Shown piece by piece: positions 517 to 53,448 of a stretch of 64,000 nt of DNA; the first letter of the stretch is position 1, and every line of letters starts with the position of its first letter. The DNA lies in the NCBI GenBank assembly GCA_965656375.1, contig CBFHKH010000001.1, forward strand, positions 708,291 through 772,290. The letters run 5' to 3'. The translations under genes and the position numbers were made by a program. The notes under the pieces are model-generated. The model saw only the letters and a list, made by a program, of their open reading frames with translations. It searched no databases and was not told the DNA's origin. The stretch is from Minisyncoccia bacterium (GTDB lineage Bacteria > Patescibacteriota > Minisyncoccia > Phycocordibacterales > UBA9973).

Positions 517-602
517 ATAAGACGAATACTATCATATTTTCAATATATTTCAACTAAGCTTTTAAAAATATGGTTTAAATGGTATCTTGTGTCTAGAGAC
601 AT

Positions 603-674
603 GCCCCCGTAGTTCAATGGATAGAACAGCGGACTTCTAAGCCGTCGATGTAGGTTCGATTCCTACCAGGGGCA
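603..674 (+). tRNA. tRNA-Arg (anticodon TCT, probable)
   Basis: Cloverleaf readable: acceptor GCCCCCG/CAGGGGC (one mismatch), D-arm GTTC-AATGGATA-GAAC, anticodon loop CTTCTAA, T-arm GTAGG-TTCGATT-CCTAC. The anticodon stem has one mismatch, so the isotype call is moderate. Confidence 0.75.
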
Positions 675-676
675 CT

Positions 677-1474
677 ATGAAAGTAAAAATCCTATTTGAA
701 GACAAAAATGTCCTCGTACTCGACAAGCCAGCGGGTATGGCCGTGCATCCTGACGCGCGTACGACAAAGGAAAAAACTATTTCTGACTTCATCCTGGAGA
801 ATTATCCCACTCTTAAAAACGTGGGTGAGCCGATGATGATAGAATATATGGGCAAGAAAATAGAGATCAAGCGCCCGGGTATTGTCCATCGTCTTGATAG
901 GGAAACATCAGGTGTGCTTCTCGTTGCTAAGAATCAAAAGACGTTTGAATTTCTCAAAGCACAATTTCAAAATCATACAATCAAGAAAGTATATAGGGCG
1001 TTTGTCTACGGATACGTTTCTGATCCGAAAGCATCGCTTGCGACTGGTAAGCGTGGAGTGATCAATGTGCCTATCGGTCGGAGTCCAAAGGATATCCGTA
1101 TGTGGACTGCTGGTCGTGGCGCTCGCGAACCGTTGCGAGAAGCAGTTACTAATTATGTAGTCCTCGATCGATTTACTAATACGAAAAATCCCAAGCCTAC
1201 AGTCGAACATCAGTTTTCATATGTAGAAGCATATCCAAAAACGGGGCGTACTCATCAGATTCGTGTTCATATGCGCTATATAAATCACCCAGTTGTTTCT
1301 GATCCTTTGTACCGCGGAGCAAAAGAGCTTGCGCTTGGGATGAAACGTCTAGCGCTGCATGCATATTCTATTACGTTCAAACTCCCAAGTGGAGTGGAAA
1401 CAACGATCGAGGCTCCACTCCCAACTGATTTCAAGAAAACGATTAAAGCTTATAGTATATCTTCGCCGAAATAA
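677..1474 (+). CDS. RluA-family RNA pseudouridine synthase
   Basis: Catalytic motif HRLDRETSGVLLVAK (the RluA/RluD Asp motif). Size 265 aa. The ATG lies 3 nt after tRNA-Arg. Confidence 0.8.
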   Translation: MKVKILFEDKNVLVLDKPAGMAVHPDARTTKEKTISDFILENYPTLKNVGEPMMIEYMGKKIEIKRPGIVHRLDRETSGVLLVAKNQKTFEFLKAQFQNHTIKKVYRAFVYGYVSDPKASLATGKRGVINVPIGRSPKDIRMWTAGRGAREPLREAVTNYVVLDRFTNTKNPKPTVEHQFSYVEAYPKTGRTHQIRVHMRYINHPVVSDPLYRGAKELALGMKRLALHAYSITFKLPSGVETTIEAPLPTDFKKTIKAYSISSPK

Positions 1475-1604
1475 CCTTCTTTAAATGCACGCATAAAAGC
1501 AAGCTTGCCTTTTGCTCTGCTCGTCGTTCAAGAAAATAATAGTCGGAATACCTTCTTTATTTTCTAAACTCCTGCGCAAGGCATTTAAAGAAGGTTATTT
1601 CGGC
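1465..1604 (+). repeat. copy 1 of a three-copy structured intergenic element: conserved core of about 70 nt flanked by a 24-bp perfect inverted repeat that includes the rluA-family (677..1474) stop codon
   Basis: 5' arm gccgaaataaccttctttaaatgc (1465-1488) is exactly complementary to 3' arm gcatttaaagaaggttatttcggc (1581-1604). The core CTCTGCTCGTCGtTCAAGAAAATAATAG..GGAATACCT.CTTTATTTTCTAAACTCCTGCGCAAGG is shared with copies at about 33831-33967 and 58941-59070. Confidence 0.7.
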
Positions 1605-1657
1605 TTCGACTACGCTCTTTCTTGCGTAAAATACCTATATATGATAAAGTAGGCGCT

Positions 1658-2065
1658 ATGACAACAGGGGAAATCACAAAAGCACAATTCACTTCAGTAG
1701 ATATGGCAAGCCGCAAAAAGCTTGATTTTAAGGCTGGTGACAGTGTTCGCGTCTGGAATAAAATCCAGGAAAAAGGAAAAATCCGTCTTCAAGCATTCGA
1801 AGGCCTTGTTCTTGCACGCAAACATGGAGTAGAAAGTGGCGCTACATTTACTATCCGTAAAGTCGCTTCAGGTGTTGGCGTTGAGCGTATTTTTCCACTC
1901 TATTCTCCAAATATCGATAAGATCGAAGTACTTCGTAAGTCAAAGACTCGTCGAAGTAAACTCTACTATATTCGTACAAAGGCAGTAAAAGAAGTGAAAA
2001 AGCGTTTGAAGAGTGTTACTCTTTCAAAAGAAGAACAAAAAGAATCTGAAGCAAGCGAATCATAA
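1658..2065 (+). CDS. rplS: 50S ribosomal protein L19
   Basis: Matches L19 along its length (…[64 protein letters not shown]…). The track ORF begins at a TTG at 1622, but the internal ATG at 1658 (MTTGEITK…) gives a canonical L19 N-terminus. Confidence 0.85.
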
Positions 2066-2069
2066 TACA

Positions 2070-2096
2070 ACACCCGCTTCATGCGGGTTTTGTATT
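2070..2096 (+). terminator. rho-independent terminator (acccgc-ttcat-gcgggt followed by a T-tract)
   Basis: GC-rich 6-bp stem followed by TTTTGTATT, immediately after the rplS stop. Confidence 0.65.
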
Positions 2097-2164
2097 GAAA
2101 AAACGACGAGAGTAAGGTATACTCGACACGTTCATGATTTTCTACAATAGAATATGGTATATAT

Positions 2165-2248
2165 GCACGGGTGGCGAAACTGGTAGACGCACTACCTTGA
2201 GGTGGTAGCGGGGGCAACCCTGTGGAAGTTCAAATCTTCTCCCGTGCA
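2165..2248 (+). tRNA. tRNA-Leu (anticodon GAG), long variable arm
   Basis: Acceptor GCACGGG/CCCGTGC. Anticodon stem CTACC/GGTAG with loop TTGAGGT (U33-GAG-G37). Long variable arm CGGGGGCAACCCTGT. T-arm GGAAG-TTCAAAT-CTTCT. Confidence 0.8.
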
Positions 2249-2251
2249 CAA

Positions 2252-2286
2252 AAAGAAATCCCGACATTTGTCGGGATTTCTTGTAT
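2252..2286 (+). terminator. hairpin gaaatcccgaca-tttg-tcgggatttc followed by T(s), after tRNA-Leu
   Basis: 11-bp inverted repeat directly after the tRNA and before msrA. Confidence 0.5.
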
Positions 2287-2297
2287 ACTACATCTAT

Positions 2298-2834
2298 ATG
2301 AATAAAGTAATTTTTGCAGGGGGGTGTTTTTGGTGTGTGGAACACGATCTCCGAGAAGCACACGGAGTAGTGGATGTTATTTCTGGATATACTGGGGGTA
2401 ATTCTACTCATCCTACATACGAGAATCACACAGGTCATCGCGAAGCCGTAGAAGTGGAGTATGATCCTGCGAAAACATCATTTAAAAAACTCACACAGTA
2501 TTTCCTTGACCACATAGATCCTACTGATGCCGGTGGTCAATTTGGTGACAGGGGAGGGAGCTACCAGACTGCGATTTATGTTAGTACTCGAGAAGAAAAG
2601 ACTATTGCCCAAGATCTGCTCAAAGAGCTTGATGAATCAGGAGTCTATGATAGACCGCACATGGTAGAGGTTCTTGAAACTACGCCGTTCTACAGAGCGG
2701 AAGAATATCATCAGGAATACGCAACAAAGAACCCAGATCAGTATGCTCTCTATCGAGCACGTTCAGGTCGTGAGGACTTTGTAAATCGCACATGTGCTAT
2801 TCGGGAAGAGAAGCATATCATGTGGAAAGAATAA
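2298..2834 (+). CDS. msrA: peptide methionine sulfoxide reductase MsrA
   Basis: N-terminal GCFWC active-site motif and MsrA-like sequence throughout. The start was moved to the in-frame ATG at 2298 (MNKVIFAGGCFWC…), because the track ORF 2202.. begins at a GTG inside tRNA-Leu. Confidence 0.85.
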   Translation: MNKVIFAGGCFWCVEHDLREAHGVVDVISGYTGGNSTHPTYENHTGHREAVEVEYDPAKTSFKKLTQYFLDHIDPTDAGGQFGDRGGSYQTAIYVSTREEKTIAQDLLKELDESGVYDRPHMVEVLETTPFYRAEEYHQEYATKNPDQYALYRARSGREDFVNRTCAIREEKHIMWKE

Positions 2835-2835
2835 T

Positions 2836-3405
2836 ATGCTTATTATATTTTACTTCTTAGAGTGGTTTGTTGTTCTTATATTTGGTATTACATTTATACT
2901 TGTAGTATTTTGGATGCTTACCTCATTTCGTTCCCAGGTGCCTTTTGTTCCAGTTCCTAATAAACTTCTCAGTGATATTCATACAGCACTCGGTGTGACA
3001 GATAAGAGTATCGTATATGATCTCGGATGTGGGGAAGGGCGTGTACTTTTCTATTTATCTCGTCGTGTACCGAACGCCCGATATATTGGCATTGAGAATA
3101 ATCCATTTCCGTTGCTGCTCATTCGTGCACGAGCGTGGTGGCATACGCGTACAACGGGCACATCCATAGAAATTGTTCAACAAGATTTTTTTACACACGA
3201 TCTATCAAATGCGACGCATATCTTTACCTATCTGTATCCGAATGTTATGGATGATTTGTTGCCAAAATTCGATCGTGAACTTGCGAGAGGTACAAAACTT
3301 GTCTCGCTATCATTTAAATTTACTCAAAAGCAACCGCTGCAAGAAATTGATTTAAAGAAAACTGGATATTTGCGTGGACGCAAGCTCTACGTCTATGAAT
3401 TTTAA
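2836..3405 (+). CDS. class I SAM-dependent methyltransferase with an N-terminal TM helix
   Basis: Motif I VYDLGCGEGRVL. Size about 190 aa. N-terminal hydrophobic segment. The start was taken at the in-frame ATG at 2836, just after the msrA stop. Confidence 0.55.
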   Translation: MLIIFYFLEWFVVLIFGITFILVVFWMLTSFRSQVPFVPVPNKLLSDIHTALGVTDKSIVYDLGCGEGRVLFYLSRRVPNARYIGIENNPFPLLLIRARAWWHTRTTGTSIEIVQQDFFTHDLSNATHIFTYLYPNVMDDLLPKFDRELARGTKLVSLSFKFTQKQPLQEIDLKKTGYLRGRKLYVYEF

Positions 3406-3428
3406 ATCGAGATGATATACTATACTGT

Positions 3429-5369
3429 ATGATAACTGAAGATCTTATCGACTATATACGAACAAAAAGAAAAGAAAATATAACAGATGATGAAATCACT
3501 TCACGACTCCTCCGTGCCGGATGGCATGATGCTGACATTACAGAAGGATTTCAAAGAATTACTCCCCCGGCGATTATTCCAAAAGCTTCTCCCGCCGCCG
3601 CGCTGGTACCTCCCATTGTGCCTCGTACACCAAAAGCTATTGTATTAGAACCACAAATCGAAGAAGATGATATTCCGGAAATCACTGCTACTGAACCGAC
3701 CTCTTATAAAATTCCCAAACCTGAAGTTGTAAAATCTACTGTACAAACAAGTTTTTCTCCGCAAAACTCTAAAGATGTGAAGCCCCTCTTTACTACTGAA
3801 GCGCCAAGGGTAGAACTAACTCCGACACTTATTCCAAAGGTGGCGCACCCTATACCTACTCAAAATAGTATCTCTCCAAAGAAGCCTCTTCCAGAAAGTC
3901 CTCTCATCAAAACTTTCTCAAGTGATATTCAAAAAGCAGAAGCGACCATCACCGAAGAATCAGTACCGAGCGCACGAAGGAAGATTGCTCGCAGTATCAT
4001 TATTGTTCTTGTCATTGGTCTTATTGGCGGTGCAGCATTTGCATTTCTAAAAGGATATATCTCATTTGCATCATTTATTAAAAAAGATCCAAAAGTTCTC
4101 CTCCTTGGTACCCCATCTCATCTTTCATCGCTTTCATCATATAGATCAGACACTACTATTACAGCTTCTTTCCCGTCAGTTGCAAATATCACAAATGGTC
4201 TTATTAGTGGAAATGTAGTTACATCTAAAGATACAGATTCAGTCTCGATTGATATAAAAAGTACTATACACAACAATTCTTCTAGCGCTTCCCATGCGCT
4301 TTCAGATCACGCGTTTCATATTAGAAGTTCACTGATACAAAATGATATTGATGTTGATTTGAAATATAATGGTACTACTTCTTTTATAACGATACCTGAT
4401 CTTAGTAATCTTTTTGGGGAACATGCACCGCTCTCGGGTCTTGTGGCAGTGGGGGATACTGAGTTTGATGAACTTCTGTCTCTCGTGCCAATACAATATA
4501 GAGATATGATACGAAATACTGATTTTTATAAAATGAAATCAAACGGGATTCCACCATATGTGATCAATAGCCTCAAGGTTTCCTTGAAAGAACTCATCGA
4601 TAGTGCAGATGTTTCGGAAAAACCAAAAGAAGTTATACAAGGGATAGATACATACCATTATATATTGAGTGTTGATCGAGCTGATACTAAAAAATTCCTC
4701 ATTTCTTTGGCCGATATTTTCATCACTACGCTTTCGGAGACTCAAAAGAAAAATCTTGAAGAAGCGCTCGGAGCATCGAATTTCGATACGATCGAGGTTT
4801 GGGTAGGTACGGATGATTCTTTGGTTCATCAATACAAATTCTCACTTTCGGTCCCACTCTCAAAGGTGATAAATTTAGAAGACAAAGGGATTGATGGCAA
4901 TACAGTAACATTTACATGGCAGTCGAGTGTATATGATTTCAATCAAGCTACATCAGTGCTTCCTTCGGAAACTGCGACGCCAGTATCTGACTTTGTTAAG
5001 CTTGGACTTGATAAGAATATTAAAACCACGATGGCATCCTTTATTACTGCTTCTAAGACGTTTCGAAATGCTCTCGGATCATATGGTAAAACCAATACGG
5101 GAGGAAGCTGCGTAAATCCAAGTGCGGGATCTCTCTTCTCTCCTGTCGGACATACGAAAGGTGCAGCGACTTCTGTTGGAGCTATCGCACATACTATGAA
5201 TATACTTGTCGCAAATCCAACCGGCGAAGGTTCCTGTCTCTCGACGCCGACTGCGTGGGCGATGGCGTTCCCGCTTGCAAGTGATCCGACCTCTTCGTAT
5301 TGTGTCGATAGTACTGGCTCATCTCGTATTCGTACATCTCCTCTTACGACAACGTTGTGTGATAAATAA
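3429..5369 (+). CDS. large membrane-anchored protein: short cytoplasmic N-terminal domain, Pro-rich linker, single TM helix, about 430-aa extracellular Ser/Thr-rich domain with C-terminal Cys pairs
   Basis: TM segment IARSIIIVLVIGLIGGAAFAFLKGY. The N-terminal motif …DDEITSRLLRAGWHDADITEGF… resembles a recurring small N-terminal domain of Gram-positive membrane proteins. No enzymatic motifs. Confidence 0.5.
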   Translation: MITEDLIDYIRTKRKENITDDEITSRLLRAGWHDADITEGFQRITPPAIIPKASPAAALVPPIVPRTPKAIVLEPQIEEDDIPEITATEPTSYKIPKPEVVKSTVQTSFSPQNSKDVKPLFTTEAPRVELTPTLIPKVAHPIPTQNSISPKKPLPESPLIKTFSSDIQKAEATITEESVPSARRKIARSIIIVLVIGLIGGAAFAFLKGYISFASFIKKDPKVLLLGTPSHLSSLSSYRSDTTITASFPSVANITNGLISGNVVTSKDTDSVSIDIKSTIHNNSSSASHALSDHAFHIRSSLIQNDIDVDLKYNGTTSFITIPDLSNLFGEHAPLSGLVAVGDTEFDELLSLVPIQYRDMIRNTDFYKMKSNGIPPYVINSLKVSLKELIDSADVSEKPKEVIQGIDTYHYILSVDRADTKKFLISLADIFITTLSETQKKNLEEALGASNFDTIEVWVGTDDSLVHQYKFSLSVPLSKVINLEDKGIDGNTVTFTWQSSVYDFNQATSVLPSETATPVSDFVKLGLDKNIKTTMASFITASKTFRNALGSYGKTNTGGSCVNPSAGSLFSPVGHTKGAATSVGAIAHTMNILVANPTGEGSCLSTPTAWAMAFPLASDPTSSYCVDSTGSSRIRTSPLTTTLCDK

Positions 5370-5371
5370 AT

Positions 5372-5791
5372 ATGCACTTCATCCTTATTAATTCTATCTG
5401 TATACTTGGCCTTGTTGGATTTTTGATTGCTACATATATTTATGGCAAGAAAAAATCCAAGAAAAAGCTTGTCTGCCCTCGGTATTCAAACTGTGACACG
5501 GTAATCCATTCTGATTATTCAAAACTTTTTGGTATTCGAGTTGAAGTACTCGGCATGATCTATTATCTTTTTATCGGAAGTGTGTACAGTATTGTATTTG
5601 TAGCCAATGCATGGTCCGCTACCCTTGGTCTTATATTGGTAAGTAGTAGTATGTGTGCAGTACTTTTTTCTATCTATCTGGTGTCGATACAAGCATTTGT
5701 GCTCAAGCATTGGTGTGTTTGGTGTCTCTCTTCTGCTTTTATATCGATTCTCATTTTCATCCTCTCATACATTCATCTTGGTCTCTATTAG
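5372..5791 (+). CDS. vitamin K epoxide reductase (VKOR) family disulfide oxidoreductase
   Basis: Loop cysteines in CPRYSNC, the conserved S..LFGI..E.LG segment (SKLFGIRVEVLGM), and a TM CxxC (CVWC). Four to five predicted TM helices. Confidence 0.7.
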   Translation: MHFILINSICILGLVGFLIATYIYGKKKSKKKLVCPRYSNCDTVIHSDYSKLFGIRVEVLGMIYYLFIGSVYSIVFVANAWSATLGLILVSSSMCAVLFSIYLVSIQAFVLKHWCVWCLSSAFISILIFILSYIHLGLY

Positions 5792-5864
5792 AGGCTTTGA
5801 TTTATAAGCGATTTTCTGGTATAACAGGATAATCGACTGAGTACTTTACCCAGTCCAAAGATAT

Positions 5865-5937
5865 GGGGGCTATGGTGTAACGGTTAACACTGAGGTTTGT
5901 GGAACCTTCGATCTGGGTTCGATTCCCAGTAGCCCCC
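5865..5937 (+). tRNA. tRNA-His (anticodon GTG) with an extra 5' G(-1)
   Basis: Acceptor G(-1)+GGGGCTA/TAGCCCC+C discriminator, anticodon stem GAGGT/ACCTT with loop TTGTGGA, T-arm CTGGG-TTCGATT-CCCAG. Confidence 0.8.
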
Positions 5938-5980
5938 CATTTAAAAAACGCCTGTACAGGCGTTTTTTAAATGGGGGGCT
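5931..5980. terminator. 50-nt perfect palindrome (bidirectional terminator-like) that includes the tRNA-His 3' end
   Basis: agccccccatttaaaaaacgcctgta|caggcgttttttaaatggggggct. The two 24-nt arms are exact reverse complements. The inner part aaaaaacgcctg…caggcgtttttt is a classical bidirectional terminator. Confidence 0.6.
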
Positions 5981-6105
5981 AAAGAAGTGAACTGCTTCAC
6001 TTCTGTCTGGGAATCGAAAGACTTTTCTGTCATTTGGTTACAAATGCAGAAAAGTACCCGCGACCGTAGGTCGAGATTCCCACCTTCCTATGCTAAAATA
6101 CCACC

Positions 6106-8751
6106 ATGCAAGAACTTACATCACCATGGGCTTCCTCAACACAAGAGATCATCGGAGACTTACGATCATCTCCTTCCGGCATTTCTGATCGAGAAGCTGA
6201 AACGAGAATCAATCAGTATGGTAGTAATACATTTCACAACAGAGAAAAGGCACGCCCCATCCTTCTTTTTTTAAAGCAATTTTTGAGCCCTCTTATATTC
6301 TTGCTCGTTGGAGCAGCGGTTTTGACGAGTATCCTCGGTGAATGGGTCAATACAGGAGTGATTGCATTTGCAGTTCTCCTGAATGTTGCTATTGGTTTCT
6401 ATCAAGAATTCCATGCTGAAAATACTCTTGAAAGATTAACGACATATATAAAAGATCGTGCTCGCGTTATTCGTGATGGTAAAGAGGAAGAGATTGACTC
6501 GACTCTGCTTGTTCCTGGAGATATCGTAAAGCTTACGTACGGAATACGAATACCCGCTGACACTCGAATTCTTTCTGTTAACAATTTCCAAGTTGATGAA
6601 GCAATTCTTACTGGTGAGCCGATTCCCGTTTCAAAAGAAGAGGGTACTGTGCCACTGTCTGCACTTATCGCTGAACGTAAGAATATCGCCCATGCGGGAA
6701 CTCTCGTAGTACAGGGATACGCAACCGCAATTGTCTATGCAACTGGAGATTTTACGGAAATCGGTAAAATCGCAGGGATTGTCTCGGCAACAAAGCGCTC
6801 TGAAACTCCACTTCAAAAGGGGATCACACACTTAGCGTGGCTCGTATTTTGCATTGTGATCATTATTGTTCTTGGAATTCTCATTCTGGGTGTTTCTCAT
6901 GGAGAGCCACTACTCCCGATGCTTGTTCTCTCTGCAGCAGTTGCAGTCGGTGCTGTTCCTGAAGCATTGCCGATAACCCTTACTGTCATCCTTGCAATTG
7001 GGGCGCTTCGTATTGCTCACAAAAAAGGAATTGTACGAAAGCTTTCTGCTGCTGAAACGCTCGGCTCGACGACACTGATCATGACTGATAAGACAGGAAC
7101 ACTTACACTCGCTGATATGCAGCTTGTTGGTATTCATACTCGAGATCTGCTCCTTGGAAGTAGTAGTGATACGAATGAATCAAAATCATTTTCTCATGAG
7201 CAAAGACGCCTGCTTGAATTTGCTCTTCTTAATATCGATGTATCTGTTGAGAATCAAGACAAGGATAAAAAGGAATGGACCTTTCTTGGAAAACCATTTG
7301 AAGTTAATATTGCTAAAGCGAGTCGCGATCACAATATATCACTTGATCCTATTCTCTCTACGACATCCTCGCTCGTTTTGCCGTTCAATTCGACAAATAA
7401 ATTTTCAATTGCTCAAAAAGATGATCTCTATATTGTTATGGGTGCCCCCGATATTTTGCTTAAGCGTTCTACTCTTTCAAAAGAAGAATATATCAAGTTC
7501 GAAGAGTGGATTGAATCAACAAGCCGCGACGGAAAACGACTCATCGGCCTTGCGACATGGAAGGGCAAGAATTCTCAAGGTCACATTACGCCGGATGATG
7601 CAGAGAATTTGGATTTTGTCGGAATGCTCGTTTTCTATGATCCAATACGTCCGGAAGTCCCAAATGCGATTAGTGTCATTGAATCGCATGGAATAAAAAT
7701 CGTCCTCGTAACAGGTGATTTAAAGGGTACTGCTATCTCGATCGCAAAGAGTCTTGGCTGGCAGGTAGAGGAAAATCAGGTTCTTACGGGGAGTGAATTA
7801 AGAGCATTGTCTGATGATGAACTTCTAAAGATTATTCCAACTATAAAAATATTTGCGCGGGTAACACCGGAAGATAAGCTCCGAATCGGCAAACACTACC
7901 AGAAGCTCGGCGAAGTAGTGGCGATGACAGGGGATGGAGTCAACGATGCGCCAGCATTGAAGGCAATGGACATCGGCATATCACTCGGTTCGGGTAGCGA
8001 TGTAGCAAAAAGTGCGGCTGATCTGGTTCTTCTCGATGATAATTTTGAGACTATTAGTCTTTCAATTGACGAAGGTCACCGGATTTTGGCTAACGTTAGA
8101 AAGACGGTTGTATATCTCATGTCCAATTCTCTTGATGAAGTATTCATCATCGGCGGGAGTCTCATTGCGGGACTCGCGCTTCCGCTTACAGCACTCCAGA
8201 TCATCTGGGTTAATCTCTTTACGGGATCTTTACCTGCACTCGCATTTGCATTTGATGAGAATATGGATCGAAAAAAATATTCAAAGCATGAGTCGAAGCG
8301 AATTTTTACCAAAGAGGTAAAAGTGATCACGCTCGGGATCGGAGTATTGAGTTCGCTCTTCCTCTTTCTCTTATACTATGTATTGTTGAAATATATTTCA
8401 AATATCGCAGAAGCTCGCTCGATTTTCTTTGTTTGCTTTGCCTCATATATTCTGGCGATCTCATTTTCATTTAGAAGTTTATACAATTCTCTTTTTTCGT
8501 ATCATATCTTTTCAAATAGAAAACTTAATCTAAGTATCATACTTGCATTCGTGATTTTGATTTTGACGATGTCAGTTCCGTTCATCAGGCATATCTTTGA
8601 ACTTGCTCCGTTGCCACTCTATTCAGTACCGCTTGTGGCACTGTGGCTCATCTTTAATGTATTTTTGGTAGAAGCAGCAAAGTATGTTTTGCGAACGAGG
8701 AGCCGTGTTCGTTCAAAACGTGCTGATCTAAGACTTGCAATTAGTAAATAA
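6106..8751 (+). CDS. P-type cation-transporting ATPase (P2-type, Ca2+/Mg2+-ATPase-like)
   Basis: Phosphorylation motif DKTGTLT, hinge TGDGVNDAPALK, 881 aa, about 10 TM helices, and an N-terminal actuator domain. Confidence 0.85.
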   Translation: MQELTSPWASSTQEIIGDLRSSPSGISDREAETRINQYGSNTFHNREKARPILLFLKQFLSPLIFLLVGAAVLTSILGEWVNTGVIAFAVLLNVAIGFYQEFHAENTLERLTTYIKDRARVIRDGKEEEIDSTLLVPGDIVKLTYGIRIPADTRILSVNNFQVDEAILTGEPIPVSKEEGTVPLSALIAERKNIAHAGTLVVQGYATAIVYATGDFTEIGKIAGIVSATKRSETPLQKGITHLAWLVFCIVIIIVLGILILGVSHGEPLLPMLVLSAAVAVGAVPEALPITLTVILAIGALRIAHKKGIVRKLSAAETLGSTTLIMTDKTGTLTLADMQLVGIHTRDLLLGSSSDTNESKSFSHEQRRLLEFALLNIDVSVENQDKDKKEWTFLGKPFEVNIAKASRDHNISLDPILSTTSSLVLPFNSTNKFSIAQKDDLYIVMGAPDILLKRSTLSKEEYIKFEEWIESTSRDGKRLIGLATWKGKNSQGHITPDDAENLDFVGMLVFYDPIRPEVPNAISVIESHGIKIVLVTGDLKGTAISIAKSLGWQVEENQVLTGSELRALSDDELLKIIPTIKIFARVTPEDKLRIGKHYQKLGEVVAMTGDGVNDAPALKAMDIGISLGSGSDVAKSAADLVLLDDNFETISLSIDEGHRILANVRKTVVYLMSNSLDEVFIIGGSLIAGLALPLTALQIIWVNLFTGSLPALAFAFDENMDRKKYSKHESKRIFTKEVKVITLGIGVLSSLFLFLLYYVLLKYISNIAEARSIFFVCFASYILAISFSFRSLYNSLFSYHIFSNRKLNLSIILAFVILILTMSVPFIRHIFELAPLPLYSVPLVALWLIFNVFLVEAAKYVLRTRSRVRSKRADLRLAISK

Positions 8752-16404: not shown

Positions 16405-19002
16405 ATGACAATAACCATCACCAAGAGAGACGGTACAAAAGCATCTTTTAATGCAGATCGAATCAACAAATCCATAGAGCGCGCATGCTATGGTATGACC
16501 GATCCTATCAGTAAAGTCATTCAGATCGCGACAGAAACACGACTAACTCTCTACGATGGTATCACTACCGAGGAACTTGATCTTGCGACGATCAACGCTG
16601 CGCTCCAAAATACGCAGTATGATCTTGAATTCGACAAGATTGCGACTCGGCTTCTCCTCAAAGTTATCTACAAGAAGGTGATGGGAGACTATGATCCTGA
16701 TAACGAAGCTGCGCTTATCACAAAAGACGAATTTGCAAAGCTCCATGGAGAGCATTTCAAGGAATATATCCTTGATGCTGTTGAACGCAATCTTCTTGAT
16801 GCACGTATGGCGACATTGTTTGATCTCGATCAACTTGCGGAGAGTCTCAATGTTCTCAATGATGAACTCTACAAATATTCTGGACTCTCGACGATGCTCA
16901 ATCGCTATCTCATGAAAGATGAGAAGCAGTCTCCTCTTGAAACCCCGCAATATTTTTGGATGAGAGTAGCGATGGGTATGTCGCTCTCTGAGAAAAATCC
17001 AACAGAGTGGGCGAAAAAATTCTATGCAAAGATGTCTGCACTTGAATATCTTTCTGCTGGCTCTTCAAACATTGGTGCAGGAACTCCAAAACCAAAACTC
17101 TCAAACTGTTTCTTGATGGAAATTCATGATGACATGGAACACATCGGTAAAACTGTTTCTGACGTGCTCCTTCTTTCAAAAGCAACCGGTGGTATTGGTC
17201 TATCTGTCACAAAACTCCGCGCTGAAGGTTCACTCCTTAAATCAAACAACACTGTTTCATCTGGACCAGTTCCATTCATGCATATCATCGACTCTGCTGT
17301 TCGCGCAGTGCAGCGCGGAGGCAAGAAAAAAGGCGCACTCTGCTTCTACATGGAGAACTGGCATTTGAATTTCCAAGACTTTCTCGATTTGAAACAGAAC
17401 AATGGTGATGACTATCGTCGTGCCCGTACGGCAAATACTGCTGTCTATATATCAGACGAATTTATGAAGCGTGTGATCGCAGGGGATGATTGGTATCTCT
17501 TTGATCCAAAGGAAGTTATAGATCTCAATGAGCTCTATGGCAAGGAATTCTCCAAGCGATATAACGAATACGTCGAGCAGGCAAAAGCAGGTCGCATAAA
17601 GCTCTATACGGTGCTTCCTGCCCGCCAGCAATACAAGAATATCCTTATTTCTCTCCAGACGACTTCACACCCGTGGCTTACCTGGAAAGATACGATCAAT
17701 GTTCGTGCGCTTAACAACAACACTGGTACGATCCACTGTTCGAATCTCTGTACGGAGGTCACGCTTCCAACTGACCGCGACAATGTAGCAGTTTGTAACC
17801 TTGTATCTATCAATATCGCTCGCCACATCGTAGCGGGACAGATTGATTGGCACAAGCTTGAGGATAGTACACGTCTTGCGATTCGCCAACTCGACAATCT
17901 TGTCGACATCAATGAACTTCCAATTCCAGAAGCTCGTCGCGCAGACTCAGAGAATAGAGCAGTTGGACTTGGACTCATGGGATTCTCTGATGCGATCGAA
18001 CAGCTCGGATATTCATACGAAGATAAAGAGGCGCATGATTTTTCTGACCAAGTATTTGAATTCATCTCCTACATGGCGATCGATGAAAGTGCAAATCTTG
18101 CGGAGGAGCGCGGTGCATATAAAAATTTCAAGGGATCAGAATGGTCAAAGGGCCATGTGCCGATCGATACGATGGACAAGCTTGCGCTTGAACGTGGACG
18201 CGAACTTCTTACAAAGAAAGATTCTGCAAAACTTCTCCCTGTTCTTGATTGGGACAAGATCCGCGCAAAAGTGAAGAAGGGAATCCGTAATGCGACTCTT
18301 CTTGCGATTGCACCAAATGCGAACATCGGCCTCGTTGCAGGGACTGCACCAGGTATCGATCCGCGATTTGCACAGATGTTCTCTCGCAACAAAATCTCTG
18401 GTAAATATCTTGAAATCAACCCTAACCTTGTGAAAGCGCTTCAAAAAGAAAAACTCTGGGAGACAGTTCGCGAACAGATACTCGAACATCATGGAGATAT
18501 TGAAGAGATTGCTGAAATCCCAGATACAATCAAGCGCATCTACAAGACTTCATTCTCAGTTTCTCCATATGCATATATTGAAGTCGCAGCTCGTGCGCAG
18601 AAGTGGGTAGATATGGGAATCTCACGCAATATGTATCTCGACATCCGAGATATCGATGAGATCATGAATATCTATACGAGTGCATGGGATCGAGGACTCA
18701 AGACTACATACTATCTCCATATGAAACCTCGCCACACTGCTGAGCAATCTACCATCAAGGTCAATAAATCAGAAGCGATGGGACGCCGTGGATTCGCAGC
18801 TCTCCGACAGGCAAAAGTCACACCTGTACTGGCAGAAGAAAAAGTCCTTGAAGAGAATGGTGTCATGCCACTCTCTGCGCTTCCAAAAGGAGAAAATATA
18901 GCAGATGTTGCTCGAATCCCGAGTAAAGAAGCCGAAGAAGCATCGCATATCTGCCTCCCTGAAGATCCTAATGATAAGTTTTTGTGTGAAAGTTGTCAGT
19001 AA
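16405..19002 (+). CDS. nrdA: class I ribonucleotide reductase alpha subunit with N-terminal ATP-cone
   Basis: ATP-cone N-terminus (ITKRDGTKASFNADRINKSIERAC). 865 aa. C-terminal Cys pair (…CESCQ). Immediately followed by nrdB. Confidence 0.85.
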   Translation: MTITITKRDGTKASFNADRINKSIERACYGMTDPISKVIQIATETRLTLYDGITTEELDLATINAALQNTQYDLEFDKIATRLLLKVIYKKVMGDYDPDNEAALITKDEFAKLHGEHFKEYILDAVERNLLDARMATLFDLDQLAESLNVLNDELYKYSGLSTMLNRYLMKDEKQSPLETPQYFWMRVAMGMSLSEKNPTEWAKKFYAKMSALEYLSAGSSNIGAGTPKPKLSNCFLMEIHDDMEHIGKTVSDVLLLSKATGGIGLSVTKLRAEGSLLKSNNTVSSGPVPFMHIIDSAVRAVQRGGKKKGALCFYMENWHLNFQDFLDLKQNNGDDYRRARTANTAVYISDEFMKRVIAGDDWYLFDPKEVIDLNELYGKEFSKRYNEYVEQAKAGRIKLYTVLPARQQYKNILISLQTTSHPWLTWKDTINVRALNNNTGTIHCSNLCTEVTLPTDRDNVAVCNLVSINIARHIVAGQIDWHKLEDSTRLAIRQLDNLVDINELPIPEARRADSENRAVGLGLMGFSDAIEQLGYSYEDKEAHDFSDQVFEFISYMAIDESANLAEERGAYKNFKGSEWSKGHVPIDTMDKLALERGRELLTKKDSAKLLPVLDWDKIRAKVKKGIRNATLLAIAPNANIGLVAGTAPGIDPRFAQMFSRNKISGKYLEINPNLVKALQKEKLWETVREQILEHHGDIEEIAEIPDTIKRIYKTSFSVSPYAYIEVAARAQKWVDMGISRNMYLDIRDIDEIMNIYTSAWDRGLKTTYYLHMKPRHTAEQSTIKVNKSEAMGRRGFAALRQAKVTPVLAEEKVLEENGVMPLSALPKGENIADVARIPSKEAEEASHICLPEDPNDKFLCESCQ

Positions 19003-19115
19003 ATAGCCATTAGCAGTTAGCATTTAGCTACTAGCCAATGCACATTATAATCTAACTAGTCTTTCAGTAATTACTCGCTAAATGCTAGGAGCTAATCGCT
19101 AAAAGCTAACTATAT
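19003..19115 (+). promoter_or_regulatory. heptad-repeat leader: (TAGCNNN)x5 - 38 nt containing TATAAT - (NGCTANN)x5 - 5 nt - ATG of nrdB
   Basis: tagccat tagcagt tagcatt tagctac tagcc … cattataat … cgctaaa tgctagg agctaat cgctaaa agctaac tatat ATG. Exact period 7. The two arrays are mutually complementary (TAGC/GCTA). The same design recurs before fusA and, 3' half only, before rplK. Confidence 0.55.
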
Positions 19116-42537: not shown

Positions 42538-43008
42538 ATGCGAAGAAAAATCAAAAATCGAAATATCGTAGACGCTGACATCATGTACAACTCTCAAAAG
42601 TTGGGCAAGTTCATCAATAACATCATGCAAGATGGCAAGAAGGAGACCGCACGCAAAGCAGTATATCTCGCTTTTGATATGATCAAAGAAAAGACTGGTA
42701 ATCCAAACCCACTCGAAGTATTCGACACTGCAATCAAAAATGCAGGTCCGATGGTAGAAGTTCGCTCACGTCGTATCGGTGGTGCAAACTACCAGGTCCC
42801 TCGTGAAGTTCGCCCAGAACGACGCCAAGCACTCGCAATGCGATGGATAATCCTCGCTGCTCGTAGCAAGAAAGGCGCTCCGATCCATGTGAAGCTTGCA
42901 GAAGAATTGATACTTGCTTCAAAGAACGAAGGAACAGCTATCAAGAAGCGTGATGATACGCACAAGATGGCAGAATCAAACAAGGCTTTCGCACACTTCG
43001 CTTGGTAA
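42538..43008 (+). CDS. rpsG: 30S ribosomal protein S7
   Basis: Canonical S7 (…KFINNIMQDGKKETARKAVY…). 156 aa. Follows rpsL. Confidence 0.9.
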   Translation: MRRKIKNRNIVDADIMYNSQKLGKFINNIMQDGKKETARKAVYLAFDMIKEKTGNPNPLEVFDTAIKNAGPMVEVRSRRIGGANYQVPREVRPERRQALAMRWIILAARSKKGAPIHVKLAEELILASKNEGTAIKKRDDTHKMAESNKAFAHFAW

Positions 43009-43028
43009 TATACTCTTTATATCCACTC

Positions 43029-43062
43029 ACAAAACTCCCTTTTCGGGGAGTTTTGTTTTGAT
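43029..43062 (+). terminator. terminator-like hairpin aaaactccc-tttt-cggggagtttt after rpsG
   Basis: Perfect 10-bp stem with a T-rich tail. Confidence 0.6.
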
Positions 43063-43128
43063 TGCAAATTTTAGCTGTATATTGTATATTCTAGGGACAT
43101 TAAGACGCGAAGGTCTTTTTTTCTTTAC

Positions 43129-43220
43129 TAGCGACTAGCTTCTAGCACCTAGCTCCTAGTATAAGAATTTCAAGGTTTATTTATTACTGCTAGCAGCTAG
43201 AAGCTAGCGCCTAAAAGCTA
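43129..43220 (+). promoter_or_regulatory. heptad-repeat leader before fusA: (TAGCNNN)x4 - spacer with TATAAG - (GCTAGNN/GCTANNN)x5 - 6 nt - ATG
   Basis: tagcgac tagcttc tagcacc tagctcc tag-tataagaatttcaaggtttatttattact-gctagca gctagaa gctagcg cctaaaa gcta tttatt ATG. The arms are largely complementary (gcgactagcttctagc vs gctagaagctagcgc). Confidence 0.55.
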
Positions 43221-43226
43221 TTTATT

Positions 43227-45368
43227 ATGGAAAGAGATTATCCACTAGAGAAAGTTCGAAATATTGGAATTATCGCCCACATCGATGCGGGTAAGACTAC
43301 AACAACAGAGCGTGTGCTCTTTTATACAGGCGTGTCGCACAAGATCGGTGAAGTGCACGACGGTGAGACAACAACAGACTGGATGGAACAGGAGCGTGAG
43401 CGTGGTATCACGATTACATCTGCTGCTGTTACTTGTTTCTGGACTCCAACGTATGCAATAGGGGACAAGAACAAGAAGCATCGCTTCAACATCATCGATA
43501 CTCCTGGTCACATCGACTTCACTGTAGAAGTGAAGCGCTCCCTTCGCGTGCTCGACGGTGCTGTTGTCGTATTCGACGGCGTTGCCGGCGTTGAACCTCA
43601 GTCAGAGACAAACTGGCGCTATGCTGATGAGGCAAGTGTGCCTCGTATTTGTTTCGTGAACAAACTCGATCGTACTGGTGCATCATTTGAGCACTCATAC
43701 AAGACAATCCTTGATCGTCTTACAAAGAAAGCTATTCGCGCTCAGATTCCAATAGGCCTTGAAGATGGTCATGAAGGAGTTATTGATCTTCTCAAGATGA
43801 AAGCATACTACTTCGAAGGGGAAATGGGTAATAAAGTTATTGAAAAAGAAATTCCAGAAAACATGAAAGCTGATGCAGAGAAGTATCATGCAGAATTGAT
43901 TGAAAAGATCGTCGAACAAGATGATGCAGTCATGAACGAATACTTCGAAGGCAAGGTTCCAGATATCGATACACTCAAGAAGCTTATGCGTAAAGGCGTC
44001 ATTGCTAATGAAATTTTCCCTGTATTTGCAGGATCTGCCCTCAAGAATAAGGGTGTTCAGCTCGTACTTGATGCTGTCGTTGATTACCTTCCATCACCTA
44101 CAGATATTCCTCCGATCCCAGGTGTTGATCCAAATACTGATGAAGCTGTAGTACGCAAGGCATCTGATAGTGAGCCGTTCTCAGCACTCGCATTCAAGGT
44201 GGCAACTGACCCATTCGTTGGTCAGCTTATCTTCTTCCGAGTTTACTCAGGATCTATCGCTGCAGGTTCGTATGTATACAACCCTCGCACTCGCAACAAA
44301 GAGCGCCTTGGACGAATACTCCGCATGCACGCAAACGATCGTGAAGAAGTAAAGAAAGTGTACGCAGGTGAAATTGCCGCCGCAGTCGGACTCAAAGACA
44401 CCATCACTTCAGATACACTTTGTGATGAAGAGAATCCAGTCGAGCTTAACCGTATTGTATTCCCAGAACCAGTTATCAACCTCCGCGTAGAGCCAAAGAC
44501 AAAGGCAGACCAGGAGAAAATGGGTATGGCGCTTAATCGTCTTGCTCAAGAAGACCCGACATTCAAAGTATCAACTGATCCAGAAACAAACGAAACTATT
44601 ATCGCAGGAATGGGAGAACTTCACCTTGAAATTATCGTTGACCGTATGAAACGTGAGTTCTCAGTCGAGACAAACGTCGGCAAGCCACAGGTAGCATACC
44701 GCGAGACTATTACAGGTGAAGCACAGGTAGAAGGCAAGTACATCAAGCAGTCAGGAGGCCGCGGTAACTATGGTCACGTAAAGATCAAGATCAAGCCAAT
44801 GGACCTTACTGTTGATCCAGATGATCTTCCAAAGAACGTAAAACGTGAAAAAGGATTTGAATTCATCAACACTATCAAAGGAGGCGCAATTCCACAAGAA
44901 TACATTCCAGCCGTTGAAAAGGGTCTTAAAGAAGGTCTTGATCGTGGAGTTCTTGCAGGATTCAAGCTTGAGAACGTCTCTGTAGATCTCTATGACGGTT
45001 CATACCACGATGTTGACTCAAACGAAATGGCTTTCAAGATTGCTGCTTCTATGGCGATTCAGGATGCAGCAAAGCTTGCAAAACCTGTGATCCTCGAACC
45101 TATGATGCAGGTAGAAGTTATCACTCCAGACAAGTTCATGGGAGATGTGACTGGTTCGCTCTCATCAAAGCGTGGAATTATCGAAGGTATGGAAGCACGT
45201 GGTATGAATCAGGTAGTGAAAGCTGTCGTTCCTCTTTCTGAAATGTTCGGATACATGACAACCCTCCGCTCAATGACCGAAGGCCGTGCAGGATTCACTA
45301 TGGAATTCGTCCGCTACGATATAGTCCCACAGAATGTTGCTACAACTATTATCGAGTCTCGCAAATAA
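43227..45368 (+). CDS. fusA: translation elongation factor G
   Basis: G-domain motifs [18 protein letters not shown]. 713 aa. Follows rpsL-rpsG. Confidence 0.9.
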
Positions 45369-52094: not shown

Positions 52095-52132
52095 TTCTGC
52101 TAGCAGCTAATTGCTAGTGGCTAAAAGCTAAA
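52095..52132 (+). promoter_or_regulatory. GCTA heptad array (GCTANNN)x5 ending 7 nt before the rplK ATG (3' half of the motif seen before nrdB and fusA)
   Basis: gctagca gctaatt gctagtg gctaaaa gctaaac attt ATG. No TAGC 5' array upstream here. Confidence 0.5.
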
Positions 52133-52137
52133 CATTT

Positions 52138-52566
52138 ATGGCAGCTAAAAAAATAACTAAAAAAGTAAAATTACAAATCCCTGCAGCGAAAGCTACTCCT
52201 GCGCCACCACTTGGTCCTGCGCTCGGTCAGGCTGGAGTAAACATCGCTGAATTTTGTCAGAAGTTTAACGCGATGACTCAAGATATGGCAGGTGAAACAG
52301 TCGGATGTGTTATCTCAGTGTACGAAGATCGTACCTATGATATCCAGGTAAAGACTCCTCCAGTTGCAGGCCTAATATTCAAAGCAGCAGGCATCGAAAA
52401 GGGTTCAGGCAAGCCAAATACTTCAAAGGCAGGCAAGATCACCAAAGCCCAGGTTCGCGCAATCGCCGAGAAGAAGATGCCAGATCTCAATGCGAAAGAT
52501 ATCGAAGGTGCAATGAAGATCGTGGAAGGCTCAGCTCGCTCAGCAGGAATCACTGTTACAGACTAA
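52138..52566 (+). CDS. rplK: 50S ribosomal protein L11
   Basis: …[26 protein letters not shown]… is canonical L11. Confidence 0.9.
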
Positions 52567-52567
52567 T

Positions 52568-52610
52568 ACAAAACAACAAAACACCCGCATATGCGGGTGT
52601 TTTGTTGTTG
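52568..52610. terminator. bidirectional terminator acaaaacaacaaaacacccgc-atat-gcgggtgttttgttgttg
   Basis: About 19-bp palindrome directly after rplK. Confidence 0.7.
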
Positions 52611-52653
52611 ACATATTTGTGATTTAAAGTAGGATGAAGAAAAACATACAACT

Positions 52654-53448
52654 ATGAACCATAAAAAATTAGTCTGGAAAGAACGAGATGCCGACTTAGA
52701 AAAGGCTATCCGTTTCCATGACCCGAAGCATCGCTTCGAAGTCATGATGTACCGGACCAATTTGCTGGTCCATACAACAAGAGTCCCCTTGATCGTGGAA
52801 GCACTTATACCGCTTGCACAGACATATTACGAAGAATTTGATCCAAACCTCGTTCGTCTTATTGCTAAATATCATGATGATCCTGAGCTTGTCGCACTAC
52901 GTGGCGATGTATCACTCCAGCTCAAGCTAAAAATGGATGATGATGAAAAAGAAATATTACGAAGAGAAGAGATTGAAGCAATAAATCAGATAGCAAAATT
53001 TTATCCTAAAAAAGTTGGAGGATATAATTATAAAGCAATCCTGATGCATGCGTTACACAAAGACTGCCCTGAAGCGCAGCTCCACTCGCTTGCAGACAAA
53101 TGGGATGGATGCTGTGAATCATTGCATGAAGTGTTTGCAGGAAACTTAGTTTTCGTTGAACCGGTACTTAATTATTATCAAGGGATTTTTGGAAAGCGAT
53201 ATGAAAAGTTTTCGCTAATAAAAGAACTATTCATTGATGATATAGCTCAGAAGAACTCGTTCCTTCAGTTTCCTACATTTGATTTCATGGATCTATTTGA
53301 TAGTGGCAAACGCAAATGCGCACCACATACACAAGAGTCCCTGTCGTATGATAGCAAAATACCAGCGTACGAGGCATGGAAAAAGATCACTCTCAGTAAT
53401 TTTCCTAATGGTTTAGATTTGCTTACAAGGCAAAAAGAATTTCAATAA
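52654..53448 (+). CDS. HD-domain phosphohydrolase-like protein (occupies the position where rplA is normally found)
   Basis: H…HD…D spacing (LLVHTTRV … KYHDDPE … DKWDG) is suggestive of an HD domain. 264 aa. Family assignment tentative. Confidence 0.4.
   Translation: MNHKKLVWKERDADLEKAIRFHDPKHRFEVMMYRTNLLVHTTRVPLIVEALIPLAQTYYEEFDPNLVRLIAKYHDDPELVALRGDVSLQLKLKMDDDEKEILRREEIEAINQIAKFYPKKVGGYNYKAILMHALHKDCPEAQLHSLADKWDGCCESLHEVFAGNLVFVEPVLNYYQGIFGKRYEKFSLIKELFIDDIAQKNSFLQFPTFDFMDLFDSGKRKCAPHTQESLSYDSKIPAYEAWKKITLSNFPNGLDLLTRQKEFQ

Follow-up and report, generated by a model that had tools for sequence, protein, structure and literature searches.

What does a run of seven-nucleotide repeats do when it stops just short of the start codon of a highly expressed gene? 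The question is raised by a 64-kb stretch of a Minisyncoccia bacterium genome (GenBank assembly GCA_965656375.1, contig CBFHKH010000001.1, positions 708,291 to 772,290 of the forward strand), hereafter the window, in which arrays of heptads with a GCTA core stand in the gaps nrdA-nrdB, rpsG-fusA and nusG-rplK. An earlier note made from the sequence had described the rpsG-fusA array as TAGC heptads, a spacer, GCTA heptads and tttatt leading to the fusA ATG, and had proposed that it may enhance translation initiation. Direct reading gave exactly this array, and the identities of the genes concerned (S12, S7, EF-G, NusG, L11, NrdA and NrdB) were confirmed. We find that heptad arrays before start codons probably act on the mRNA. 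The explanation that we favour, and that we hold tentatively, is that the array is a cis element lying directly 5′ of the start codon and affecting the translation of highly expressed genes.

We use the term arm for a series of tandem 7-nt units, the right arm carrying GCTA in the sense direction and the left arm its inverted form, TAGC. Both arms are present at nrdB and fusA, and rplK has a right arm only. Each of the five arms of the window is made of five units at period 7, and the three right arms all end in the same 10-mer, CTAAAAGCTA, which occurs exactly three times in the 64 kb when both strands are scanned, always on the plus strand, and ends 7, 6 and 7 nt before the ATG of nrdB, fusA and rplK, respectively. 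An aaaagcta block at this distance from the same three start codons was part of the earlier description and is thus borne out. Such periodicity is far beyond chance. The pattern CTAG-N3-CTAG matches six times, all within the fusA element, against 0.48 in shuffled sequences (0 of 100 reached six), and GCTA-N3-GCTA matches 17 times against 1.2 expected, all within positions 19004-19108, 43129-43206 and 52099-52130. When all 256 tetramers were scanned at periods 5 to 12, four or more copies in a row were found only for GCTA/TAGC/CTAG at period 7, plus one T-run. Within the five arms, 24 of the 25 GCTA/TAG units match the consensus, the sole exception being a CCTA, and what the three loci have in common is limited to these cores, the last unit and some 8 nt of inner flank, their loops and spacers being unrelated. 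Each arm also closes all six reading frames and contains almost no start codons. The tetramer CTAG is itself scarce in the window (57 copies in 64 kb), and 12 of the 57 lie inside the five arms. The nrdB right arm holds a 6-codon mini-ORF (open reading frame; 19082-19102, ATG CTA GGA GCT AAT CGC TAA) that ends 13 nt before the nrdB start and may be due to chance.

Similar arrays are found well outside the window. We searched a single genome of each GTDB species for five GCTA-N3 units, which gave at least 120 loci, and metagenomes for the pattern GCTA-N3-GCTA-N3-SCTAAAAGCTA-N5-8-ATG, which gave at least 77 distinct instances before real ORFs, with at least 74 distinct ORFs downstream; all counts reported below for these two samples and for phage contigs are counts among the matches listed. 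The genome sample, an unbiased one, includes Acidobacteriota, Bacteroidota, Cyanobacteria, Chloroflexota, Gemmatimonadota, Saccharibacteria, Paceibacterota, Collinsella and others, and three of the carriers are cultivated (Hymenobacter profundi, Hymenobacter ginsengisoli and Collinsella aerofaciens). It comprises 78 near-perfect microsatellites and 54 imperfect arrays with variable spacers. The imperfect arrays have an ORF start at most 60 nt downstream of their GCTA end in 26 of 54 cases and on the antisense side in 8 of 54, and when only starts within 11 nt are counted the figures are 10 versus 0, whereas the perfect microsatellites are symmetric, with 19 versus 19 ORF starts. Where two arms form an inverted pair, the order is 5′-TAGC arm then GCTA arm-3′ in 31 cases and the opposite in one, so that the A-rich arm is placed beside the AUG; the corresponding 41 versus 0 in the metagenome set is biased by the search pattern.

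In the metagenome instances, right-arm length peaks sharply at five units (45 of 77 instances, and three of three in the window), and a left arm of at least three units accompanies it in 30 of 77, the other 47 having none. In the two-armed cases a co-directional upstream ORF stops near the first TAGC in 27 of 30, with 24 of these stops lying within -17 to +20 nt of it and 20 within -3 to +20 nt. The unit consensus is GCTA-A-n-A, position 5 being A or G in about 90% of units, and the linker between array and ATG is A-rich and G-poor. The loops between paired arms vary in length from -2 to 82 nt, and a third do not exceed 9 nt, which rules out a promoter in the loop as the general design.

Ribosomal proteins (r-proteins) make up 17 of the 74 distinct downstream ORFs of the metagenome set, namely S9 (three times), L14, L20, L24, L9 and L10 (twice each), L7/L12, S17, S2 and L25, and other products include trigger factor (2), Hsp70 (2), NusA, ATP synthase gamma and c, and NuoC (2). 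The independent genome sample adds S13 and L17 as products of downstream genes. Arrays occupy the r-protein operon gaps S17-L14, L14-L24, L13-S9 and L35-L20 of Bacteroidota-like contigs, and the orthologous gaps S17-L14, L13-S9, L14-L24 and nuoB-nuoC retain them in contig pairs whose synonymous divergence is close to saturation (third-codon-position identity 0.44-0.62) and whose loops can no longer be aligned. The left arm is more labile, since the near-identical contigs L150 and L193 differ in its presence. The array-plus-ATG design was also seen before an eIF2-gamma-type GTPase (L229, 839-2069) and a Mu-like phage portal protein (L233, 246-2908); the former suggests an archaeal contig, and the design is not confined to bacterial chromosomes. 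Two further occurrences are of another kind. In a Candidatus Saccharibacteria metagenome-assembled genome (L052, 7099-7227) an inverted pair of GCTA-heptad arms flanks a perfect 20-bp hairpin with A- and T-runs that resembles a bidirectional terminator, and an ORF begins 25 nt beyond the left arm on the opposite strand. The metagenome contig Ga0214544_1005142 (L127) has, at about 580-7400, some 7 kb with no ORF of 90 or more amino acids that consists nearly entirely of CTAG-N3 heptads with variable spacers.

GCTA is not the only core. The same r-protein operons that carry GCTA arrays also carry inverted heptad arrays of GATTT/AAATC between S17 and L14 and before S14, while an AATTG heptad array precedes L35 and TCAGC/GCTGA arrays are found in equivalent gaps; each gap has its own core (L150, 6570-6690 and 8085-8175; L158, 7020-7135; L154, 1975-2145). 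Among the matches listed for phage contigs, GACT arrays of five units equal GCTA arrays in frequency (both counts being lower bounds), CGTA arrays are rarer (58 matches), and arrays there also tend to adjoin start codons or Shine-Dalgarno (SD) sites. The general feature is therefore a 7-nt period with a lineage- or locus-specific core of 4-5 nt and 2-3 free positions, and not the GCTA word itself. With other cores just as frequent, it is unlikely that GCUA is read by one conserved and universal component such as rRNA.

Is the array of the window on the mRNA at all? At fusA a sigma-70-like promoter lies upstream of both arms (Table 1), and since its hexamers are conserved in relatives, the arms should be co-transcribed and belong to the fusA 5′ untranslated region (UTR), the transcription start being deduced from the promoter. 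The only terminator reported by a scan of this locus is the one that follows rpsG. The array hairpin itself does not qualify as an intrinsic terminator, its 3′ side being A-rich (CUAAAAGCUA), and none follows the array. The promoter followed by a short GC hairpin and T-run (window 43062-43125; L243 3385-3445; equivalents in L245 and L247) resembles a fusA transcription attenuator.

Table 1. Positions of the array elements and of the fusA leader signals in the window.
Feature	Coordinates	Strand	Description
fusA left arm	43129..43159	+	TAGCGAC TAGCTTC TAGCACC TAGCTCC TAG; four full TAGC cores and a final TAG; GCTA units on the minus strand
fusA spacer	43160..43188	+	29 nt, AT-rich; loop of the predicted hairpin; holds a TATAAG hexamer
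fusA right arm	43189..43220	+	five heptads, GCTAGCA GCTAGAA GCTAGCG CCTAAAA GCTA
fusA linker and start	43221..43229	+	6-nt tttatt (43221-43226); ATG at 43227
nrdB left arm	19004..19035	+	five TAGC heptads; begins 1 nt past the nrdA stop codon (19000-19002)
nrdB spacer	19036..19076	+	41 nt; perfect TATAAT hexamer at 19047-19052
nrdB right arm	19077..19108	+	GCTAAAT GCTAGGA GCTAATC GCTAAAA GCTA; linker actatat; ATG at 19116
rplK right arm	52099..52130	+	GCTAGCA GCTAATT GCTAGTG GCTAAAA GCTA; linker aacattt; ATG at 52138
Intrinsic terminator after rpsG	43029..43056	+	12-bp stem and T-run; conserved in relative L243; context, outside the array
Sigma-70-like fusA promoter	43062..43090	+	TTGCAA-17-TATATT; hexamers kept in L243, L245 and L247; upstream of both arms
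Small GC hairpin and T-run in fusA leader	43102..43123	+	attenuator-like; relatives have one with other stem sequences

The start-site context of these genes had also entered the earlier argument, in which the three array genes were said to have no obvious SD sequence. The motifs GGAG, GAGG and AGGA are indeed absent from the arrays and their linkers, as judged by these motifs with the organism's own 16S 3′ end lying outside the window. This is no peculiarity of the three genes, since an SD-like motif precedes only 2 of the 58 genes of the window. The low-GC contigs that bear arrays elsewhere are SD-poor as well: a lenient test gives 16% for these contigs and 14% for the window. A TAnnnT box ending 5-9 nt before the start codon was found in 25 of 58 window genes, against 19% expected, and tatATG or catATG is frequent right at the gene starts; such boxes indicate leaderless mRNAs, which this genome, from its sequence, appears mostly to use. 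The host is a tiny-genome, Nomurabacteria/Paceibacterota-like bacterium of the candidate phyla radiation (CPR), and its closest organism-named FusA homologues are labelled Candidatus Nomurabacteria, Paceibacterota or Patescibacteria.

The predicted minimum-energy fold of the fusA leader, as RNA, has -42.7 kcal/mol (z = -3.4), and none of 200 dinucleotide shuffles was equally stable. In its stem, positions 43131-43146 pair with 43196-43210, so that right-arm units 1-3 are paired with the left arm and CTAAAAGCTA (43211-43220) is predicted to be unpaired; the pairing of gcgactagcttctagc with gctagaagctagcgc that had been read from the sequence is part of this fold. The nrdB spacer region gave -30.7 kcal/mol (z = -1.96), and in both hairpins the last unit or units and the linker are predicted to stay unpaired. 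For rplK, which lacks a left arm, the leader showed no significant predicted fold (z = -0.8). When we looked for unit-by-unit compensatory pairing of the arms, spacer complementarity in the best register was 0.718, against 0.727 in column-preserving permutations; the arms are thus inverted copies of the unit consensus and do not form a co-varying helix. A search of the whole window with Rfam 15 at the gathering threshold returned four tRNAs only, and a permissive scan of the fusA locus (42980-43260, E up to 10) gave nothing better than E = 0.35 and no match fitting the array.

An RNA-level element that acts on translation initiation is favoured by the combined evidence: the arrays are positioned relative to the start codon and oriented by strand, they lie in 5′ UTRs and operon gaps, they are biased towards the most highly expressed genes, their modal length is five units, and some lineages have kept them. 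We propose that the right arm would be the constant and essential part: about five GCUA(A/G)NN heptads that end 5-8 nt before the AUG and may form a periodic platform, rich in A and poor in G. An RNA-binding factor would read this platform at every seventh nucleotide, and its binding would set the frequency of initiation on highly expressed genes that lack an SD sequence. The likeliest candidates for this factor would be tandem or multimerizing OB-fold proteins, for example ribosomal protein S1 or cold-shock proteins; the footprint of one OB-fold or cold-shock domain, about 6-7 nt, matches the 7-nt period. The left arm (YUAGC heptads) would be optional, pairing with the first three or four units of the right arm into an imperfect hairpin that would leave CUAAAAGCUA and the linker single-stranded, and in operons this hairpin would bring the upstream stop codon beside the downstream start and may tune or couple translation. 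The proposal of a translation-initiation enhancer made in the earlier note therefore stands in part. An action on translation at the RNA level is the best-supported possibility, with the fixed distance of 6-7 nt, the ORF-directed imperfect arrays, the r-protein genes, the SD-poor contigs and the precedent of the TAACTGA heptamers, discussed below, in its favour; enhancement as the direction of the effect is unproven, and the array may instead repress.

Several results weigh against this proposal, among them those from the relatives of the host. We sampled nine loci of relatives, about 170 kb in total, in which FusA is 88-95% and NrdB 93-98% identical to the proteins of the window, while third-codon-position identity is 0.50-0.58, which makes them genus-level relatives and not strains. 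No GCTA array was found in these 170 kb, either before fusA, rplK or nrdB or elsewhere, and the only trace is a three-unit TAGC run in L243 and L244, two loci with an identical FusA protein. In the fusA alignment the terminator, the promoter hexamers and the small hairpin all align, and the 92-nt array module appears as inserted or substituted sequence, bounded by that hairpin and the last few bases before the ATG; in one relative the whole rpsG-fusA gap is only 9 nt long. At rplK and nrdA-nrdB, other conserved leader or spacer sequences take the place of the arrays. The earlier note had named a leader not conserved in related genomes as evidence against its proposal, and this is what we see in this lineage for fusA, rplK and nrdB alike. 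The arrays are lineage-specific and dispensable, given their absence from the relatives at all three loci, and the relatives translate the same genes from plain AT-rich leaders. In addition, the lack of SD sequences throughout the window does not single out the three array genes, and the core is not universal, other cores occupying equivalent gaps. The array is also no unusually unstructured landing pad: the mean unpaired probability predicted over -20 to +10 has a median of 0.53 for starts with an array and no left arm, 0.50 with a left arm and 0.51 for control starts, differences that are not significant, so that predicted accessibility of the start region is equal with and without arrays. 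In phage contigs GCTA arrays have little orientation bias (18 versus 14 among the matches listed), and there is no sharp optimum of linker length, counts being flat over 5-8 nt, a range imposed by the search pattern itself.

Some observations on the same loci in the relatives can be added here. Three relatives (L248, 3325-3453; L249, 9886-10000; L250, 9880-10000) have a common nrdA-nrdB spacer of 115-129 nt with a hairpin CCTCGG...CGAGG, unrelated to the arrays and replaced in the window, and in a fourth (L251) this spacer measures only 22 nt. On the 3′ side of rplK in the window (52138-53448) there is no rplA (L1), and a YfbR-like 5′-deoxynucleotidase is next; in the relatives L242 (19075-20100) and L243 (12714-13718) a D-Ala-D-Ala ligase lies 3′ of rplK, again with no rplA.

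Because arrays are absent from all relatives sampled, the strongest rival is that they are selfish or neutral repeats, that is, heptamer micro- or minisatellites or insertions like repetitive extragenic palindromes (REP) or miniature inverted-repeat transposable elements, which spread in intergenic DNA and are kept where they do no harm, without a function of their own. They would be tolerated only outside ORFs, since they stop every reading frame, and only when the A-rich arm faces the start codon. We regard this as unlikely but worth serious attention, since the distribution is patchy, with the ancestral spacer or leader displaced at three loci of a single lineage, a genome holds several copies, microsatellites of perfect heptamers with this core are plentiful, heptad arrays exist with many different cores, and the roughly 7-kb CTAG-heptad field of L127 is non-coding; the terminal polarity of 31:1 among the matches listed would suit terminal inverted repeats, and unit-by-unit covariation is lacking (0.718 against a null of 0.727). 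However, three copies that share cores and last unit but have unlike spacers and loops are not recent copies of one master element, and neutral decay would not leave 24 of 25 cores intact amid random intervening bases. Nor does neutrality account for arrays that persist at orthologous gaps across saturated synonymous divergence, for the length peak at five units, for the bias in orientation and distance towards start codons that imperfect arrays have and perfect ones do not, or for the enrichment of r-protein genes downstream. We saw no transposase, and no clear target-site duplication at the borders of the fusA insertion. It could instead be the pairing of the arms that is selected, the stem-loop stabilizing or processing the mRNA or coupling translation, either because the upstream stop is placed beside the downstream start or because translation of the upstream gene unmasks the right arm, with the cores merely complementary blocks. 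The paired arms are always complementary although the cores differ between gaps (TTAGC/GCTAA, GATTT/AAATC, TCAGC/GCTGA), and different cores within one operon would prevent cross-pairing between gaps. The folds predicted at fusA (-42.7 kcal/mol, z = -3.4) and nrdB (-30.7 kcal/mol, z = -2.0) are stable, the upstream stop lies near the first TAGC in 27 of the 30 two-armed cases listed with the right arm ending 5-8 nt before the ATG, and nrdA-nrdB is an exact fit, with 1 nt after the stop, 7 nt to the ATG and two products needed 1:1. Still, a left arm is missing at rplK and from 47 of the 77 instances listed, it is gained or lost between near-identical relatives, and the spacers show no compensatory changes. 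A hairpin alone explains neither the 31:1 polarity nor the repetition of an identical core within an arm, and translational coupling cannot apply at fusA, where both a terminator and a promoter lie between the upstream gene and the hairpin. We consider this explanation rather unlikely.

Two further explanations seem to us much less probable. The heptads could be an operator in double-stranded DNA, bound by a protein of ribbon-helix-helix (RHH) type that coats 7-bp repeats and represses or insulates transcription. Inverted arms would read identically on both DNA strands, omega and ParG-type proteins read a core of 4-5 bp plus a 2-3 bp spacer, and five plus five units around an AT-rich spacer of 29-41 bp with TATAAT (nrdB) or TATAAG (fusA) recall parC of plasmid R1; heptad arrays are also common in phage contigs. 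Yet at fusA both arms come after the conserved promoter, one pair in three among those listed has a loop of at most 9 nt, too short for a promoter, and arrays stand inside r-protein operons with different cores in neighbouring gaps. Single-arm arrays are strand-oriented, and the fixed reference point is the start codon and not a promoter. A Pfam scan of small and hypothetical ORFs near arrays, which covered part of the window, found no RHH gene among those tested, nor any cold-shock or RRM domain. We judge such an operator improbable. The least probable explanation, in our opinion, is that the arms are stop insulators: YTAGC/GCTAR units contain TAG or TAA, 7 is not a multiple of 3, and stray or read-through ribosomes would be stopped in every frame just before the true AUG or after the upstream gene. 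In the window, every arm does hold one or more stops in each of the six frames and has hardly any start codons; about 90% of the units listed have A or G at position 5, and TAACTGA heptamers likewise carry two stops per unit (PMC4679880). But the rationale, true of the GCTA arms, fails as a general one for the GATTT/AAATC and AATTG arrays of the same operons, which have no systematic stops. The invariant G and C are not required for stops, three units would suffice where the mode is five, and the stop codon of the upstream gene already ends its translation.

Do the arrays have known counterparts? Our literature search for GCTA-type sequences (GCTAAAAGCTA, GCTAACAGCTAACA and others) found no relevant paper. 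The closest precedent is the TAACTGA heptamers of marine Beggiatoaceae, some Cyanobacteria and Bacteroidetes, which occur in 2-6 copies just upstream of start codons, rarely with a ribosome-binding site, with COG category J over-represented, including fusA and r-protein genes in operons, and which are absent from the close relative B. alba; a role in translation has been proposed, with S1, Csp and CsrA as possible readers (MacGregor 2015, PMC4679880). The arrays described here resemble them in being tandem 7-nt units in sense orientation, a few nt from the start codons of translation genes, usually without a ribosome-binding site, with stops in each unit and with a patchy distribution. They differ in that TAACTGA is an exact heptamer whereas the unit of the window is GCTA-R-N-N, with 4-5 of 7 positions fixed and variable spacers, in that GCTA arrays often have an inverted, hairpin-forming arm whereas a single indirect repeat is reported for BOGUAY, and in their length of about five units, their CPR host with leaderless genes and their spread over many phyla and phages. 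In Nostoc PCC 7120, contiguous TTTTGAA/TTCAAAA heptamers lie near the start codons or promoters of many genes, and their deletion alters reporter output through mixed transcriptional and translational effects, the interacting partner not having been identified (bioRxiv 10.1101/2022.06.06.494920). These A-rich heptamers, too, precede start codons in a left and a right (inverted) form, but they are exact repeats of a different core in a cyanobacterium with SD sites. We conclude that GCTA arrays belong to a widespread and little-studied class of start-codon-adjacent repeats, already described in Beggiatoaceae and Nostoc.

Better-known repeat systems are more distant. The omega repressor of inc18 plasmids and ParR/parC of plasmid R1 use contiguous repeats, direct and inverted, with one protein dimer per unit; the omega unit is WATCACW, and parC has 11-bp units in two blocks of five that flank the promoter. 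Their sites lie at plasmid-gene promoters beside the gene for the binding protein, whereas the arrays described here belong to chromosomal housekeeping genes, where they occupy 5′ UTRs and intercistronic gaps and take the start codon as reference. REP and bacterial interspersed mosaic elements are near-identical enterobacterial palindromes of 35-40 nt, usually found after genes and linked to RAYT transposases. Like the arrays they are imperfect palindromes with many copies per genome, lie in transcribed operon gaps, form RNA hairpins and are patchy between lineages; unlike them, REP are not built of heptads and do not usually abut start codons, and the copies of the window are not near-identical. 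HutP and TRAP sites consist of periodic UAG or GAG triplets that direct the choice between terminator and antiterminator in single Bacillus operons, the principle being that a ring-shaped or oligomeric protein reads a short core at fixed period on single-stranded RNA. The left arm does read (UAG-N4)n, which is the HutP spacing, but there is no hutP or mtrB context here, the conserved arm is GCUA-N3 and not UAG-N4, and no terminator follows the array.

New here are the core-plus-spacer variant across many phyla, the fixed length of five units, the strict polarity of the arms and the strong bias towards r-protein operons. The arrays bear on how start sites are chosen and ranked in bacteria that lack SD sequences, such as Bacteroidota, many CPR lineages and many phage genes, and the cultivated carriers Hymenobacter profundi, Hymenobacter ginsengisoli and Collinsella aerofaciens make the question directly testable. 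If arrays set the translation rates of the most abundant proteins, they would be relevant to gene annotation, to the design of expression in SD-less hosts and to the control of growth in CPR bacteria. More speculatively, and we would not call it likely, heptad arrays may be an SD-independent code for translation control in bacteria, some archaea and phages, with a lineage-specific 4-5-nt core of which GCUAR is the commonest, marking r-protein, elongation-factor, chaperone and other growth genes; the arrays would be read by an S1-, Csp- or RRM-like protein that binds RNA through tandem domains or as a multimer, each domain taking 7 nt, and the optional inverted arm would be a built-in competitor for this protein. 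If this were true, the heptad code would coordinate the synthesis of the translation machinery and be a bacterial counterpart of the eukaryotic 5′TOP/LARP1 system.

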